Positions 7,567 to 63,388 are shown, numbered from the stretch's first letter. The stretch: 64,000 nucleotides of DNA from an uncultured Acidimicrobiia bacterium (GCA_963714375.1 CAVQOG010000006.1:287603-351602), one strand, 5' to 3'. Notes: generated by a model from the sequence alone, not told the origin. Numbers and translations: made by a program.

Positions 7567-7571
7567 GTACG

Positions 7572-7643
7572 TGGGCGATACTGGATTTGAACCAGTGACC
7601 CCTGCCGTGTCGAGGCAGTGCTCTGCCGCTGAGCTAATCGCCC
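7572..7643 (-). tRNA. tRNA-Val (anticodon GAC)
   Basis: Reverse complement GGGCGATTAGCTCAGCGGCAGAGCACTGCCTCGACACGGCAGGGGTCACTGGTTCAAATCCAGTATCGCCCA folds as a 72-nt cloverleaf. Acceptor GGGCGAT/ATCGCCC, T-arm ACTGG-TTCAAAT-CCAGT, anticodon stem CTGCC/GGCAG, loop TCGACAC. Confidence 0.8.
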
Positions 7644-8956: not shown

Positions 8957-9030
8957 AGCGGACGACCGGGATCGAACCGGCGACCTCAACCTTGGCAAGG
9001 TTGCGCTCTACCAGCTGAGCTACGTCCGCG
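8957..9030 (-). tRNA. tRNA-Gly (anticodon GCC)
   Basis: Reverse complement GCGGACGTAGCTCAGCTGGTAGAGCGCAACCTTGCCAAGGTTGAGGTCGCCGGTTCGATCCCGGTCGTCCGCT. Anticodon loop TTGCCAA. Confidence 0.9.
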
Positions 9031-9061
9031 CTGGCGTGATGGTATCACGGGGAGGTTCTTT

Positions 9062-34431: not shown

Positions 34432-34471
34432 CCCATGAAGATATCACTAGTCGGACGAGGAATTACGGATG

Positions 34472-34515
34472 ACGGACGACAGACGACAGACGACAGACGA
34501 CAGACGACAGACGAG
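34472..34515. repeat. (GACAGAC)n heptanucleotide microsatellite, about 6 copies
   Basis: gacggac then gacagac x5, in the divergent intergenic region between dapA and the thioredoxin-like gene. Confidence 0.85.
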
Positions 34516-42317: not shown

Positions 42318-42386
42318 ACCAACAACGTACCAGCGGCGTATGACAGATCCTCAGAGATCAGACGTCAGAAGTCAGAAGCGGGCTGC

Positions 42387-52422: not shown

Positions 52423-53553
52423 ATGTCAGTGAAGTCCCCCATCACCATCCCACCCGATCTGCTGCCCGACGACGGGCGGTTCGGGTCGGGGCCATCAAAG
52501 GTTCAGAAGACCTTTGTCGACGATCTCGCTGGAACCGGACAGGCGTTCCTGGGAACGAGTCACCGTCGCGACACCGTGAAGTCGGTGGTTGGCAGCATCA
52601 GGAGCGGACTTGCCGCGTTCTACGACCTTCCAGACGGGTATGAGGTTGTACTTGGCGTCGGAGGTGCAACAGCGTTCTGGGATGCAGCAGTGTTCGGTCT
52701 CATCGAGGAACGCTCTGTGCATTTTGTCTGCGGTGAGTTCTCCCACAAGTTTGCAGCGTCGGTGCAAAGCGCACCCCACCTCGGCGAACCGATCATCCTT
52801 GAGGCCCCTCCCGGGGACGCGCCGTCACCCATCGCAGTCGACGGGGTGGACGTCGCTTCGTTCATCCACAACGAGACCAGTACCGGCGTCACGGCACCAT
52901 TCGAACGTCTCTCCGATGCACTCGTGGTCATCGACGGTACGTCGGGTGCCGGTGCCATCCCATTCGATGTCCCAAGCGTCGATGCGTACTACTTCTCACC
53001 CCAGAAGGCGCTTGGTTCCGAAGGTGGACTGTGGCTCGCACTGATGTCACCCGCAGCGATCGATCGTATCGCAAGGCTTGCACGGTCACAGCGCTGGATT
53101 CCCCCCTTTCTCTCCCTTGCCACGGCGGTCGACAATTCACTGAAGAACCAGACATACAACACGCCTGCACTCGCCACGCTGTATCTCCTCGATCGGCAAC
53201 TCAGCGCAGCGCTGGAACGTGGTGGGCTCTCGTGGGCGTCGCAGCGATGCACCGACTCATCGAATCGGCTGTATCGCTGGGCTGAAGACAACGATGCGAT
53301 GGCGCCATTTGTGTCAAATCCGGCGTTGCGCTCGACCACGGTGGTCACGATCGAAGTTGACTCCAGCATCGATGCCGATGCCGTGTCCGACGCCCTCAGG
53401 TTCAATGGCATCGTAGACACCGAGTCATATCGCAAGCTCGGTCGCAATCAACTCCGAATTGCGACCTTCCCCAATATCGACCCCGACGACGTCACGGCGT
53501 TGACCCGCTGCATCGATTTCGTCGTTGACCGACAACGGAAAGCTGAGAGCTGA
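52423..53553 (+). CDS. serC: phosphoserine aminotransferase (actinobacterial SerC type)
   Basis: [10 protein letters not shown]...[10 protein letters not shown]-terminus and class-V aminotransferase fold. Confidence 0.82.
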
Positions 53554-53585
53554 AAGCTGAGAGCTCTTCTTGGTACGATCTTGGG

Positions 53586-59633: not shown

Positions 59634-60014
59634 ATGACCGAGTTCTCTGTTCGTCTCGCAAACACCCCGGGCCAACTAGCGACACTTGCCCGGATGCTGG
59701 CGGATGCAGAAGTCGGTATTGAGGCCTTCGCAACAATCGCAGATATGGACCAATCCCATGTGCGATTCATCGCAGACAACGACGCTCGTGTCCGCCGTGT
59801 TCTCCAACTCGCTGGCGTTCAATATGACGAGACCGATGTCCTCGACACCTTCATCCCTCGAGGAACATCCGGGTTGGCTGCGATGGCCGAAGGCCTCGCA
59901 AAGGCAGGCGTGAACATTGACTCGATGTACCTTCTCCACACCGATGCCCAGGGCTACCACATCGCGGTCACCGTCAGCGACCCCGATCTCGCCCGAACAG
60001 CCCTGGCGGGCTGA
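59634..60014 (+). CDS. ACT-domain protein
   Basis: Two short ACT-like beta-alpha-beta-beta-alpha-beta units; 126 aa. Confidence 0.6.
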   Translation: MTEFSVRLANTPGQLATLARMLADAEVGIEAFATIADMDQSHVRFIADNDARVRRVLQLAGVQYDETDVLDTFIPRGTSGLAAMAEGLAKAGVNIDSMYLLHTDAQGYHIAVTVSDPDLARTALAG

Positions 60015-60103
60015 AGTCCAGACGTCGGACATCGGTCATCAGATTCCGGTCATCGGTCATCGGACGTCGGACGTCGGTCATCGGATTTCGGTAGATTGCG
60101 CTT

Positions 60104-61114
60104 ATGAACCTCGGATTTGGTCTGCTTTCTGGTCAGCGTGCACCTGACGACCCACGGTCGTGGGAGGACGTCTACCGCGAGCTGATCGAACTCACCGTTC
60201 ACCTCGAACGTCGCGGCTACACGTCGGCGTGGACCACCGAGCACCATTTCGTCGACGACGGCTACATGCCGTCATTGCTCGTGACCTCCGCAGCCATGGC
60301 AGCAGTCACCTCCCGTATACAGATCGGAACTGGCCTGGTGCTCGCTCCGCTCCACAATCCGATCCGACTTGCTGAGGATGCTGCGACCGTCCAGCTGATC
60401 TCGCAGGGGCGTCTCCTCCTTGGGCTTGGCCTTGGCTGGTCGGAGACTGAGTACGCGACATTTGGCGTGGACATCACCAAGCGTGGAAAGGCCATGACGG
60501 AGATCCTGCAATTCCTCCCCAAGGCGTGGACAGGCGAACCGTTCACATGGGACGGCAATCTATATACCTATCCCGAACTGGCGGTTCGACCAGCACCGTC
60601 AGGTCCGATTCCGATCATCGTGGGAGGATCAGTCGACGCTGCGGTGAGGCGAGCCGCTCGATACGCAGACGGGTTCTTCTCGAACGCCTCTCCCGAGCGA
60701 TTCATCGCCCAGGTTGCTGCGGCAACCGAAGAGATGGAGCGTATCGATAGGGATCCGTCTGGCTTTCGCTGGATCCACTACAGCGTCATGTACCCGGGAC
60801 ATCGCGACGAGATCCTCGAGCACGTGTGGCACCAGATCTGGAAGTACACCGACATGGAGGATTCGGTGACTCGTGGAGGTCCGATTGCCCGAACACCGCC
60901 ATTGACGAACGACATTGCCGATCGGGTTCGCAGCCGTATTGTCGGTGGATCGCCGGAGGAGATCGTCCACACGATCGGTACATTGCGCGACCGCGTGGGG
61001 GTGCCGGTGGAATGGGTCGCTCGATCCCATTTCTCGGATCTCCATTACGGACCGCAGGTCGAACTCGTCGACCGGCTCGCCCAAGAAGTCGGCCCCCACC
61101 TGCCTGCGGACTGA
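60104..61114 (+). CDS. LLM-class (luciferase-like) flavin-dependent oxidoreductase
   Basis: TIM-barrel LLM signature (WTTEHHF, GLGLGW). Confidence 0.85.
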   Translation: MNLGFGLLSGQRAPDDPRSWEDVYRELIELTVHLERRGYTSAWTTEHHFVDDGYMPSLLVTSAAMAAVTSRIQIGTGLVLAPLHNPIRLAEDAATVQLISQGRLLLGLGLGWSETEYATFGVDITKRGKAMTEILQFLPKAWTGEPFTWDGNLYTYPELAVRPAPSGPIPIIVGGSVDAAVRRAARYADGFFSNASPERFIAQVAAATEEMERIDRDPSGFRWIHYSVMYPGHRDEILEHVWHQIWKYTDMEDSVTRGGPIARTPPLTNDIADRVRSRIVGGSPEEIVHTIGTLRDRVGVPVEWVARSHFSDLHYGPQVELVDRLAQEVGPHLPAD

Positions 61115-61148
61115 CGTCGGACATCGCACAGCAGACAGCAGACAGCAG

Positions 61149-61174
61149 AGAGCCTCGGATTGTTCCGAGGCTCT
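61149..61174 (+). terminator. GC-rich hairpin terminator after the LLM gene (agagcctcgg-attgtt-ccgaggctct)
   Basis: Perfect 10-bp stem and 6-nt loop. No U-tract, which is common for actinobacterial terminators. Confidence 0.5.
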
Positions 61175-61344
61175 CTCAATGCTGGGCGCTTACCACATGG
61201 CCTCATGGTCGATATTGACCCGCCGCAGTGCGACGTACGTATCTTGGCCATCAGCGCATATCCCGACCCCATGGTATCCCAGACAGCAGACACACGTCAA
61301 CGGTTACGCAGAACTGTCACAGCAGGTTCATACGGTGAAACTGC

Positions 61345-61433
61345 GGAGGGTTGGCAGAGAGGCCGAATGCGGTCGATTGGTATTCGGCTGGCCGGTTACG
61401 TACTGGTCCGGGGTTTGAATCCCCCACCCTCCG
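61345..61433 (+). tRNA. type-II (long variable arm) tRNA-like gene with apparent anticodon GGT; possibly a variant tRNA or a pseudogene
   Basis: Fold: acceptor GGAGGGT/ACCCTCC, D-stem GCA/TGC with 11-nt D-loop, anticodon stem GTCGA/TCGGC with loop TTGGTAT, 20-nt variable arm (CCGG-TTACGTA-CTGG) and T-arm CGGGG-TTTGAAT-CCCCC, then discriminator G + CC. Deviations: T instead of C at T-loop position 56, and a C:C pair at 49:65. Confidence 0.45.
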
Positions 61434-61499
61434 CCTTTGGGAACGAAGGCAGAAGTCAGAAGTCAAACCCCTGATGAGCAGGAGTTGCAAAGCAACCCA

Positions 61500-61517
61500 A
61501 CGTCGGCGGTAGCCGAC
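61500..61517. terminator. hairpin cgtcggc-ggta-gccgacg downstream of the minus-strand gene ending at 61544
   Basis: 7-bp perfect stem with 4-nt loop. Confidence 0.4.
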
Positions 61518-61543
61518 GCGCTGAAAGCCAAGAGCTGTGGGTC

Positions 61544-62527
61544 CTATACCGCGTCGACGGCCGAGAGGATCCAGGCGATTTCGTCTTCGGGATCCTCGAT
61601 ACCGAGATGCAGGTTCCAGCCCCCGATACGGTCGCCCGGATCCCAGAGGACCCAACGAAGTTCGTCAGCTTCGCCCCCAAGAACCGAGAGATCCTCAGGC
61701 GGTTCGTCGTATCCAAGCGCTTCGAGAAGCACCCACCACGCACCGGCGCGCCCTGTCGGTGTTCCTCGTCGGCGTCCGTGACCCCCACCGCTCGCACCAG
61801 CCCACACCATCGCCTCCATCGCGGTTGACGGATCGACATCAGCGATCCGGGCGCGCCTCGGTCCCAGAGCCCGGATTCCTGTCTCGATCGTCCCATCGAC
61901 GGTGATCGCTTCTGACTTTCCGAGCGAGTCCTCCCACCAAGGTTTTACGAGCTCCATCATTGCATGGCATACGCTGTCCTCGTCCTGGGGATCGTCAGAC
62001 TCGGGGAGGTCCGTCCAATCCATATCGATGTCGAAGATGTCGTCTGGAAAGACGGCGCGGTCCGACTGGTAGACGGCGACCGGATACTCCGGCTCCCACG
62101 CCTGGAGCTTCAACGGGACAGAAAGGACATGGGTGTCGATCCCATGGCTGTCGACCGTGTCGCCACGGATGGATCGCTCGTGAGCGATCATTGCCTTCAC
62201 CGTCGGTGCCAGGTCGTGGGAGGCGAATTCCTCCCACGGGTGTGTCGAGGCTGCGACCTCCCAAAGCGGCCCGAGAGCGAACCGTCCTCGACCGTCGGCA
62301 AAGATCCCTGCCCCAAACGAGACTGCCACCGGCGCTTCGAGTGCAAGCCGATACTCGGCGAACTGAGCAATGGCCCACACCTGCTTGCCGCGCTCGACAG
62401 CCTCCTCACACCTGTCCCTGAGATCGACGAGCTCATCCCACCCGCGGCGCTCACACACCGCGTCGATGCGGCGCGAGAGGCCCGCAAGATCCGATGCCTC
62501 AATGAGCGGTGTCAAGATGTCAGTCAC
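61544..62527 (-). CDS. hypothetical protein (acidic, 327 aa)
   Basis: Long ORF with consistent coding statistics; no recognisable motif. Confidence 0.5.
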   Translation of the reverse strand: MTDILTPLIEASDLAGLSRRIDAVCERRGWDELVDLRDRCEEAVERGKQVWAIAQFAEYRLALEAPVAVSFGAGIFADGRGRFALGPLWEVAASTHPWEEFASHDLAPTVKAMIAHERSIRGDTVDSHGIDTHVLSVPLKLQAWEPEYPVAVYQSDRAVFPDDIFDIDMDWTDLPESDDPQDEDSVCHAMMELVKPWWEDSLGKSEAITVDGTIETGIRALGPRRARIADVDPSTAMEAMVWAGASGGGHGRRRGTPTGRAGAWWVLLEALGYDEPPEDLSVLGGEADELRWVLWDPGDRIGGWNLHLGIEDPEDEIAWILSAVDAV

Positions 62528-62576: not shown

Positions 62577-62996
62577 TTAGCCGACTCGCGGTTCTGCACA
62601 GGTATCGACCGCAATGTCGATGCCGGACGCTCCGAGGAAGCCGAGCGTGGCTGGGAGATACCGATCGCGTACCGTGACACACACCTGGAGTAGCGTCGCT
62701 TCGACATAGACGACAGCACTGCTACGGGCGAGCGCCGTCCCGACAGCCATCGATTCGTTCCTTGCACGCAAGGCATCGACCGCCACCGCATCGGCGTACG
62801 CTCGATCCTCAGCAAGCATCGCGGCCCCAGCCTCAGCCGCGGCATCTGCGGCGGCGGCCGCGGAGCGGTATGCGAATCCGAGCAGGGTGAGTTCCACGAC
62901 CAGGGCAACCATGACGAAGGACGTGAAGAGCAGCGCGCCAAACATGGGAAGCATCGAGCCACCCTCAGAGCGTTCGGTCAGCGTGCCACCCATCAT
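62577..62996 (-). CDS. TadE-like pseudopilin (Flp pilus assembly)
   Basis: N-terminal ER-S-EGGS followed by hydrophobic helix LLFTSFVMVALVVELTLLGFAY, typical of TadE/TadF. Confidence 0.55.
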   Translation of the reverse strand: MMGGTLTERSEGGSMLPMFGALLFTSFVMVALVVELTLLGFAYRSAAAAADAAAEAGAAMLAEDRAYADAVAVDALRARNESMAVGTALARSSAVVYVEATLLQVCVTVRDRYLPATLGFLGASGIDIAVDTCAEPRVG

Positions 62997-63388
62997 CAGC
63001 GACTACTGCGATAGGGACTGATCGGCATCTCAAATTCTGCCGACACGGTCGTCTGCACTTTCGAGCCACCAACAGCGATCAGCTCCACGTCGAGGGACGA
63101 CGAGACTCGCACGGTCTCGCCGTCAAGGTCGACGTGGATCTGTGATTGACGATCTCCCACAGGCATCTCTCCGTGACGGGCGTACCAAACAGCGACCGTC
63201 CGAGCCTCATCGGTAACGACATCCGTCGCCTCTGCCATCCGCACGGCGACGAGCAGAAACGGGATCGTTACCAACAGGACGGCAAAGCTGAGCACAAGCG
63301 TCTCGATCAGGGTGGTGCCCCTCTCCCCGAGAGTGGTGCCCCTCTCCCCGAGAGTGGTGCCCCTCTCCCCGACAGACAGTTCGGTCAC
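62996..63388 (-). CDS. TadE/TadF-like pseudopilin with N-terminal (GERGTTL)x3 repeat
   Basis: IETLVLSFAVLLVTIPFLLV pilin-like helix after a triple 7-aa repeat. Confidence 0.55.
   Translation of the reverse strand: MTELSVGERGTTLGERGTTLGERGTTLIETLVLSFAVLLVTIPFLLVAVRMAEATDVVTDEARTVAVWYARHGEMPVGDRQSQIHVDLDGETVRVSSSLDVELIAVGGSKVQTTVSAEFEMPISPYRSSR
63313..63375. repeat. 21-bp perfect tandem repeat x3 (gtggtgcccctctccccgaga) inside the TadE-like gene
   Basis: Direct reading; the third copy ends ...gaca. Confidence 0.85.

Follow-up and report, generated by a model that had tools for sequence, protein, structure and literature searches.

Natural tRNAs whose body belongs to one amino acid and whose anticodon belongs to another are raw material for codon reassignment and for deliberate mistranslation. 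In the literature searched for this work, the bacterial cases with experimental support are the allo-tRNAs (PMC5389517) and the tRNAProX genes (PMC10404621). The defining features of the allo-tRNAs are an acceptor branch of the 8/4 or 9/3 kind and a D arm like that of tRNA-Sec, with a long stem and a tetraloop; such tRNAs are known from Clostridia, Proteobacteria and Acidobacteria, often beside toxin-antitoxin genes (PMC5389517). Some of them are inactive, or are pseudogenes with stem-destabilising mutations (Mukai et al. 2017, PMC5389517). The elements that confer serine identity, i.e. the long variable arm, G73 and the pairs G1-C72/G2-C71, are independent of the anticodon (PMC9976931). Here, we analyse a tRNA gene with a serine-type body and the threonine anticodon GGT, located at positions 61345-61435 of a 64,000-nucleotide stretch of DNA from an uncultured Acidimicrobiia bacterium (GCA_963714375.1, CAVQOG010000006.1:287603-351602). 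This whole stretch will be called the window.

Its structure and a comparison with other tRNAs mark it as a true tRNA gene that derives from a serine tRNA of bacteria, in the simplest case from one of the GGA type. Regarding its present role, we see about an even chance that it is an accessory, drifting tRNA-Ser derivative without a real decoding role.

Results and Discussion

Four tRNA genes are called by ARAGORN in the window, one of them as tRNA-Thr(ggt), 91 nt long and on the plus strand. An earlier reading of the DNA, made without database searches, had placed a long-arm tRNA-like gene at exactly these coordinates, and the structure drawn by the program agrees with its description: the cloverleaf is complete, with a 7-bp acceptor stem, a 3-bp D stem and an 11-nt D loop, and the threonine anticodon sits at 61379-61381 in the loop TTGGTAT (Table 1). 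The long variable arm is also there, with a length of ~19 nt in place of the 20 nt given in that sequence-only reading.

A covariance-model search recovers the gene above threshold as well. In a local scan it scores 37.6 bits (E 2e-6) on RF00005, the Rfam tRNA model, for which the gathering threshold is 29. The three ordinary tRNAs of the window reach 65-69 bits on this model, but clean class II tRNAs reach merely 42.8-44.2 bits, and for this reason the score of the window gene is not far under normal. The low Rfam score was accordingly rejected as a sign of decay, the gap to the ordinary tRNAs being largely a class effect. It should be added that a default gathering scan of the full window missed the gene through speed-filter loss, which can conceal long-arm tRNAs even when their local-scan score exceeds the threshold.

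The fold has a minimum-free-energy z-score of -2.9, with 0 of 200 shuffles as stable. The core positions U8, A14, G18G19, U33, G53, T54, T55, A58 and C61 are all kept, and C56 is replaced by T (61416). This C is retained in the orthologue described below and in 120/120 comparison tRNA-Ser among the matches listed. The two irregularities pointed out in the sequence-only reading, T56 and the C:C mismatch in the T stem, are thus both present. We have also considered the unencoded CCA as a pseudogene sign, and found it uninformative: among the three normal tRNAs of the window, tRNA-Cys alone encodes CCA.

The body is that of a serine tRNA, one of the classes that the reading had considered on account of the long arm. 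An anticodon-free pattern, consisting of the acceptor, D arm and T loop of the window gene, was scanned against metagenome contigs and matched at least 120 tRNAs. These are ordinary tRNA-Ser, so the scan is no measure of how widespread the window gene is; among the matches listed, 120/120 carry a serine anticodon (TGA in 88, CGA in 31 and GGA in one). The D arm fits the pattern TGGCAGAGNGGNNGAATGC, common to all 120, exactly, and has the layout of the serine type, with a 3-bp stem, G13.A22, G18G19 and the extra positions 20a/20b. The serine identity set, G1-C72, G2-C71, G73 and the long variable arm, is present, and G73 is found in 58/60 aligned family members. Identity to tRNA-Ser goes up to 75/92, as compared to 50-54/92 for tRNA-Leu.

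A covariance model built from 60 of the pattern-matched tRNAs, called R1, gives 90-104 bits for held-out family members and 74-85 bits for other serine isoacceptors. The window gene scores 68.1 bits and its orthologue in a sister lineage 71.7, while the normal tRNAs of the window score 58.3 (Cys), 33.7 (Val) and 26.5 (Gly). The inner anticodon stem and loop, CGA-UUGGUAU-UCG, are two bases off the CGA-UUGGAAA-UCG of the Ser(GGA) isoacceptors, which makes a tRNA-Ser(GGA) with an A36U change the simplest origin. A serine anticodon (NGA or GCU) is absent from both copies, the window having GGT and the orthologue GAT. The window gene has the G35 and U36 of a threonine anticodon, but not the class I body with its variable loop of 4-5 nt.

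The anticodon does not reflect an altered genetic code. At sites where at least three orthologues agree, 23/23 ACC and 7/7 ACT codons of the window align with threonine and never with serine. Reassignment of ACY codons was therefore rejected, with 30/30 at conserved threonine sites; this result excludes reassignment and says nothing on low-level mistranslation.

Homologues assign the organism to the uncultured Acidimicrobiia. To place the gene among relatives, syntenic loci were collected from several lineages through the two flanking proteins, an LLM-class oxidoreductase and a 327-aa hypothetical protein. In L001-L005 and L008 (79-84% protein identity) the two genes are separated by 1-240 bp, in L006 and L134-L137 by an unrelated three-gene insert, and in a third lineage (L138-L144, GCA_002418265.1) by a 90-bp spacer, in all cases with no tRNA. 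In the sister lineage L130-L133, whose LLM protein is 93% identical, a 378-bp spacer aligns to that of the window and contains an orthologous long-arm tRNA, to which ARAGORN gives the name tRNA-Ile(gat). The insert that carries the tRNA is thus present only in the window and L130-L133, and absent in L138-L144, L001-L008 and L134-L137. Yet by nucleotide identity to the window L138 is closer than L130, both for the LLM gene (87.0% vs 83.4%) and for the 327-aa gene (87.9% vs 78.2%). On these figures the phyletic pattern is in conflict with the flanking-gene phylogeny.

L130-L133 are three sequencing-run assemblies and one NCBI metagenome-assembled genome (MAG), GCA_008501565.1, and all are mutually identical. 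The latter (L133, contig QQUL01000332.1) is labelled 'Armatimonadetes bacterium' at NCBI; its contig is syntenic with Acidimicrobiia genomes, with proteins 78-93% identical, and is probably a mis-binned contig or part of a mislabelled MAG. As one refuting outcome, the sequence-only reading had named relatives that expose the gene as a decayed form of an ordinary tRNA-Ser(GGA). The case is not that simple, as the sole orthologue found has GAT (Ile), again a non-serine anticodon.

The sister orthologue scores 44.2 bits on RF00005 and differs from the window gene at six of 92 positions (alignment A1). Position 5 is G in the window and A in the sister, where an A5.C68 mismatch results in the acceptor. 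Position 35 is G in the window and A in the sister, which accounts for the two anticodons, GGT and GAT. In the variable arm there are two transitions, and pairing is kept in both through G.U. The 5' strand of the T stem lacks one G in the window, leaving a 4-bp stem or a C49.C65 juxtaposition, and position 56 is T in the window and C in the sister. Of the four stem changes, two preserve pairs and two break them, which looks like the pattern of random neutral transitions. If the canonical tRNA features are assumed to be ancestral, the window would have gained two T-arm lesions and the sister one acceptor lesion. The T-stem deletion is probably real, because a MAFFT alignment with L138 over ~11 kb of coding sequence nearby shows in-frame gaps only, with no indels of the frameshift type.

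A C precedes the 5' end of the tRNA in both lineages (61344 in the window, 9254 in L130), and could pair with G73. Using this C, ARAGORN gives the sister copy 8 bp in the acceptor stem and 5 bp in the T stem, which is the configuration of bacterial tRNA-Sec; the D arm of the two copies is not Sec-like. In the window gene, the optional C-1:G73 pair leaves an extra C65.

It is important to compare this divergence with that of the surroundings. The 6/92 of the tRNA (~6.5%) stand against ~12 substitutions and one indel in the 168 nt of non-coding DNA upstream (~7%), and nothing in the alignment suggests that constraint on the tRNA is stronger than on its non-coding leader. Across the full insert, identity between the window and L130 is 88-95%, with ~90% over 338 nt. 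Over the same distance, four-fold sites differ by 50% in the LLM gene, 67% in the 327-aa gene and 25% in the ACT gene, and other spacers are 31-51% identical. Conservation is about equal across the hairpin at the left end of the insert, the 168-nt stretch and the tRNA, and it ends abruptly at the tRNA 3' end. On this alignment, either a strong constraint acts on the entire cassette and L138 has deleted it, or the insert has arrived recently and laterally in both lineages.

The drifting derivative to which we give an even chance would have arisen as follows. In a tRNA-Ser(GGA)-type gene, the loop UUGGAAA would have changed to UUGGUAU, and the gene would reside on accessory non-coding DNA of ~330 nt, inserted at a variable site between convergent genes. 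Dispensable and freed from its decoding role, it would now be a relic or orphan heading towards a pseudogene, with little or no share in translation. Should transcription and processing occur, the product would be expected to receive serine from SerRS via the long arm, G73 and G1-C72/G2-C71, and the charged tRNA would be a weak competitor of tRNA-Thr(GGU) at ACC/ACU, leading to Thr-to-Ser substitution. The weak T arm (U56, 4-bp T stem) would restrict both stability and delivery by EF-Tu.

A dispensable, decaying gene is favoured because it is absent from the closest relative, its anticodon is not conserved, its lesions are lineage-specific and its substitutions look neutral. Disrupted conserved structure, as in pseudogenes, is seen in both copies, as U56 and the T-stem deletion in the window and as A5.C68 in the orthologue. 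The decaying pseudogene that the sequence-only reading had offered as an alternative is in line with the lesions, and the comparative evidence leans that way; the intact cloverleaf does not. Several observations weigh against our preference. The cloverleaf is complete in both lineages, with the universal positions kept except C56, and the RF00005 score is only ~5-7 bits under that of clean class II tRNAs. Both known copies have a non-serine anticodon, a pattern also displayed by the proven mistranslator families tRNAProX (PMC10404621) and allo-tRNA (PMC5389517). Furthermore, a vertically inherited neutral relic should be unalignable at this distance. The conservation of the insert thus means that a relic would need recent lateral acquisition, and for this no donor, mechanism or second copy has been found.

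The same observations bear on a different scenario, in which the gene is an active natural missense tRNA, serylated and reading ACC/ACU to give low-level Thr-to-Ser substitution, with the sister copy giving Ile-to-Ser and the T-arm and acceptor irregularities serving as attenuators. The full serine identity set on an intact cloverleaf, U33 and U36-A37 retained in the anticodon loop, the pairing preserved by both variable-arm substitutions and an insert conserved far beyond neighbouring synonymous sites all speak for it, and one body with varied non-cognate anticodons and patchy occurrence is what is known from tRNAProX (PMC10404621) and the allo-tRNAs (PMC5389517). Thr-to-Ser is also a mild replacement: in yeast, the tRNA-Ser with a threonine anticodon, tS-T(AGU), shows little toxicity (PMC6125640), which means that the window copy could be tolerable even if active. 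However, tS-T(AGU) gave no measurable serine misincorporation, and a yeast tRNA-Ser with the GAU anticodon is lethal on accumulation (PMC6125640); the sister copy, expected to be highly toxic by this measure, is therefore unlikely to be an efficient decoder. The loss of C56 and the T-stem damage in the window, A5.C68 in the sister, a tRNA not better conserved than its leader and absent or lost in L138, and the lack of a convincing promoter for the tRNA, or of a regulator, synthetase or toxin-antitoxin gene among its neighbours, are further points against an active missense tRNA, which we consider unlikely but worth serious attention. A threonine tRNA that is odd but true, charged by ThrRS through G35-U36 and hence causing no mistranslation, is very improbable. 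In its favour are the GGU anticodon and the loop UUGGUAU, which is close to the UUGGUAA of E. coli tRNA-Thr(GGU). The undetectable misincorporation by a yeast serine body with a threonine anticodon (PMC6125640) would also be compatible with it. On the other hand, the body is class II with G73 and G2-C71, the same body bears an isoleucine anticodon in the orthologue and is thus not adapted to one synthetase, and the relatives without the gene must read ACC by a normal tRNA-Thr.

The abrupt end of conservation at the tRNA 3' end, with hairpin, 168-nt stretch and tRNA about equally conserved, raises the question of whether the conserved unit is the whole ~330-nt insert, a mobile or regulatory cassette whose 3' tRNA-like module would be a processing signal, a stabiliser or a recombination site, with an anticodon free to vary. 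Its presence in the window and L130 and absence in the closer L138, against the flanking-gene phylogeny, would fit such a unit, as would the use of the spacer as an insertion hot spot in other lineages and the tolerance of lesions in the tRNA core. We nevertheless find it rather improbable, as no second copy was found in the window or the fetched loci, no terminal repeats or target-site duplication were seen at 61120/61450, the upstream region is no more structured than shuffles and its complementarity to the tRNA is not significant, Rfam matches in the insert are limited to the tRNA, and viral, phage and plasmid collections hold no matches beyond a generic tRNA-like one in plasmids. A more far-reaching idea, and a speculative one that we think has a small chance of being right, is an undescribed family of 7/5 serine-body tRNAs with switching anticodons (Thr GGU, Ile GAU) on a laterally moving ~330-nt Acidimicrobiia cassette, a 'tRNA-SerX' for conditional mistranslation or a toxic or selfish tRNA, which would parallel the Streptomyces tRNAProX family and the allo-tRNAs. 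Finally, it is scarcely credible that errors in sequencing or assembly have given an ordinary tRNA-Ser gene this appearance. The window sequence is known from a single assembly and the T-stem lesion is a 1-nt change within a G run, but the ~11 kb of neighbouring coding sequence is free of frameshift-type indels, several independent differences separate the loop from any serine anticodon loop, and four independent sister-lineage assemblies share the unusual gene with a non-serine anticodon.

Should the gene be the drifting tRNA-Ser derivative that we prefer, it is a warning for annotation: names based on the anticodon, tRNA-Thr here and tRNA-Ile in the relative, mislabel it. More generally, an orthologous pair of serine bodies with Thr and Ile anticodons would extend the mismatched tRNAs to a new phylum-level group, the uncultured Acidimicrobiia, and may represent an intermediate stage, in which a serine tRNA with a mutated anticodon has persisted through a lineage split or a transfer, or through more than one.

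Insert, Flanks and Neighbouring Genes

Table 1. Coordinates of the tRNA gene, its parts and the surrounding features in the window.
Feature	Position	Strand	Basis or remark
Class II serine-type tRNA gene, anticodon GGT	61345..61435	+	ARAGORN; RF00005 37.6 bits; model R1 68.1 bits
Acceptor stem, 7 bp, GGAGGGT/ACCCTCC	61345-61351 / 61426-61432	+	ARAGORN drawn structure
Discriminator G	61433	+	followed by CC, then t; CCA not encoded
D arm: 3-bp stem GCA/TGC, 11-nt loop GAGAGGCCGAA	61354..61370	+	fits pattern TGGCAGAGNGGNNGAATGC
Anticodon arm GTCGA-TTGGTAT-TCGGC	61372..61388	+	anticodon GGT at 61379-61381
Long variable arm, ~19 nt: 7-bp stem GGCCGGT/ACTGGTC, loop TACGT	61390..61408	+	ARAGORN drawing, fold
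T arm CGGGG-TTTGAAT-CCCCC	61409..61425	+	T56 at 61416; C.C juxtaposition closes T stem
Non-coding insert, ~331 nt, carrying the tRNA	61120..61450		MAFFT gap of 331 nt vs L138
Upstream part of insert, ~93% identical to sister	61177..61344	+	neither coding nor detectably structured
Heptamer repeat ACAGCAG x3.7 and perfect 13-bp hairpin AGAGAGCCTCGGA/TCCGAGGCTCTCT	61128..61176	+	terminator-like, 3' of LLM gene
Right flank: heptamer GAAGTCA x3 and hairpin CGTCGGC-GGTA-GCCGACG	61445..61518		not conserved with L130
Left neighbour, LLM-class (Bac_luciferase) flavin/F420-dependent oxidoreductase	60104..61114	+	PF00296
Right neighbour, conserved 327-aa hypothetical protein of Acidimicrobiia	61544..62527	-	followed by Tad-pilus genes

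The two neighbouring genes are convergent, with a non-coding gap of 429 bp (61115-61543) between them. The noncoding island of 430 bp described in the sequence-only reading is therefore real, but its repeats do not enclose the tRNA as a pair, for CAGACAGCAGACA occurs at 61132 and 61280, upstream of it in both cases. The tRNA-associated insertion suggested there is likewise borne out in part, since an insertion of 331 nt relative to L138 exists, while the repeats that were taken as its signature are a general feature of the spacers. Tandem heptamers (types GACAGAC, GTCAGAA, GACATCG/GTCGGAC, ACAGCAG and AGCTGAG, in 3-9 copies) occur in many intergenic spacers of the window, often just past a stop codon and beside hairpins, and also in relatives. 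The sites in the window are 34471-34514, 42358-42378, 53541-53565, 60021-60092, 61128-61153 and 61445-61465, and also 18753 and 28964; one in L130 is at 9010-9060. A repeat-flanked insertion was rejected on this ground, the heptamers being a genome-wide spacer feature, and neither a target-site duplication nor terminal (inverted) repeats were seen at the 61120/61450 junctions.

The right-flank hairpin probably serves to terminate the 327-aa gene, which lies on the minus strand. A motif related to the repeat-and-hairpin segment at 61128..61176, GTCAGACAGCAGAGAGCC, is also found in the insert-less spacer of L138. As for transcription of the tRNA, a promoter-like TTGACC-19-TATCTT at 61215-61245 is a weak candidate found by eye.

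A number of other roles for the insert were considered and rejected. A small protein is not supported, as the sole shared start of an open reading frame (ORF; MLGAYHMASWSI...) loses frame at a 1-nt indel and the substitutions show no codon periodicity. For a structured RNA in the upstream part, the fold z-score is +0.9 on either strand, and no Rfam family other than tRNA was matched in the insert. In the RNAalifold prediction, the D, anticodon and variable portions of the tRNA pair with the sequence upstream, which gave the idea of an anti-tRNA leader, but the duplex energies are no better than those of dinucleotide shuffles (z +0.16 in the window and -1.57 in L130). A phage or plasmid origin was examined with the tRNA core and the upstream segment, which have no matches in viral contigs and phage genomes and one generic tRNA-like match in plasmids. 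No compositional anomaly was seen in the upstream part.

In other Acidimicrobiia, the unrelated three-gene insert in the same spacer (7005-8382 in L006, 7311-8691 in L134) encodes a 117-aa protein, a DinB/MST-family protein and a glyoxalase, and it is from this that the spacer can be called an insertion hot spot. The neighbours of the tRNA in the window are the LLM oxidoreductase, an ACT protein, DnaE2, the hypothetical protein and Tad-pilus genes. The ACT-domain gene (59634-60014) has 25-30% four-fold differences in all three lineage pairs, as compared to 35-67% in its neighbours, which reflects either an unusually low synonymous rate or exchange by recombination.

Two features farther from the tRNA can be mentioned. 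A tyrosine integrase (PF00589; 6394-7476, plus strand) ends ~95 nt from tRNA-Val(gac) (7571-7643, minus strand), which suggests an element integrated at this tRNA. A perfect 21-nt repeat in 2.9 copies (63312-63372), within an ORF at 62996-63388 on the minus strand, gives a small Tad-locus protein three ERGTTLG units at its N-terminus.

Comparison with Known Systems

The closest known relatives of the window gene are the canonical bacterial tRNA-Ser for UCN codons, of the GGAGGG-N-TGGCAGAG type. They have the acceptor, G73, G1-C72/G2-C71, the 3-bp D stem and the D-loop layout in common with it, as well as the long variable arm and the T arm, and the identity is up to 82%. Their anticodon, however, is NGA or GCT in a loop CUNGAAA, as against GGT in UUGGUAU, and the window gene further departs from them in A16, U56, a shortened T stem and its accessory rather than core location.

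How rarely such a body carries a threonine anticodon was surveyed across 185,579 species, each represented by one genome, using a Ser-type D arm, the anticodon loop YTGGTA, a long arm and a T loop. The survey is partial, covering E. coli-like serine D arms that start with GGAG, in a collection to which the window's own genome does not belong, and it gave a single match. This tRNA (L009; 6811-6897, minus strand, CAWJDD010000013.1, an uncultured Alphaproteobacteria MAG) also has a Ser-type body and the anticodon GGT. Unlike the window gene it is a single-base variant of Ser(GGA), with the loop CTGGTAA, a canonical T arm and an encoded CCA, and the two sequences are unrelated; its GGT may stem from a point mutation or from a wrong base call.

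Among eukaryotes, the nematode nev-tRNAs (Hamashima et al.) are reportedly class II tRNAs with a long arm and Gly or Ile anticodons whose charging follows the body rather than the anticodon; apart from being eukaryotic, they are said to differ from the window gene in having leucine identity and multiple copies. Closer in identity are the eukaryotic tRNA-Ser anticodon variants, Ser(CAG) of the CUG-clade yeasts and the human Ser AGA G35A, in which the anticodon is mutated and recognition by SerRS is kept (PMC11415595, PMC12993449). In contrast to the window gene, their expression and misincorporation have been demonstrated, and the yeast case is a fixed reassignment.

The allo-tRNAs share with the window gene serine identity elements, diverse non-serine anticodons (here GGT and GAT on one body) and a patchy occurrence (PMC5389517). 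Membership in this group was nevertheless rejected: the acceptor branch is 7/5 in the orthologue and 7 + 4 bp plus C.C in the window, and the D arm has a 3-bp stem and an 11-nt loop.

The tRNAProX of Streptomyces and Kitasatospora (PMC10404621, PMC11415595) are known to mistranslate from experiment, while the window gene is known from its sequence. They differ from it in their proline body (C1:G72), their A34 anticodons and the dedicated ProRSx encoded next to them. In other respects the resemblance is close: one body is combined with varied non-cognate anticodons, threonine among them, in related actinobacteria, and the distribution is polyphyletic and strain-specific, leaving horizontal transfer and loss as the two options, as for the window gene. 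No dedicated synthetase isoform lies beside the window tRNA, and none would be needed there because SerRS ignores the anticodon. A serine body with an exchanged anticodon would thus be a simple system, in which the tRNA gene could do without a synthetase of its own.

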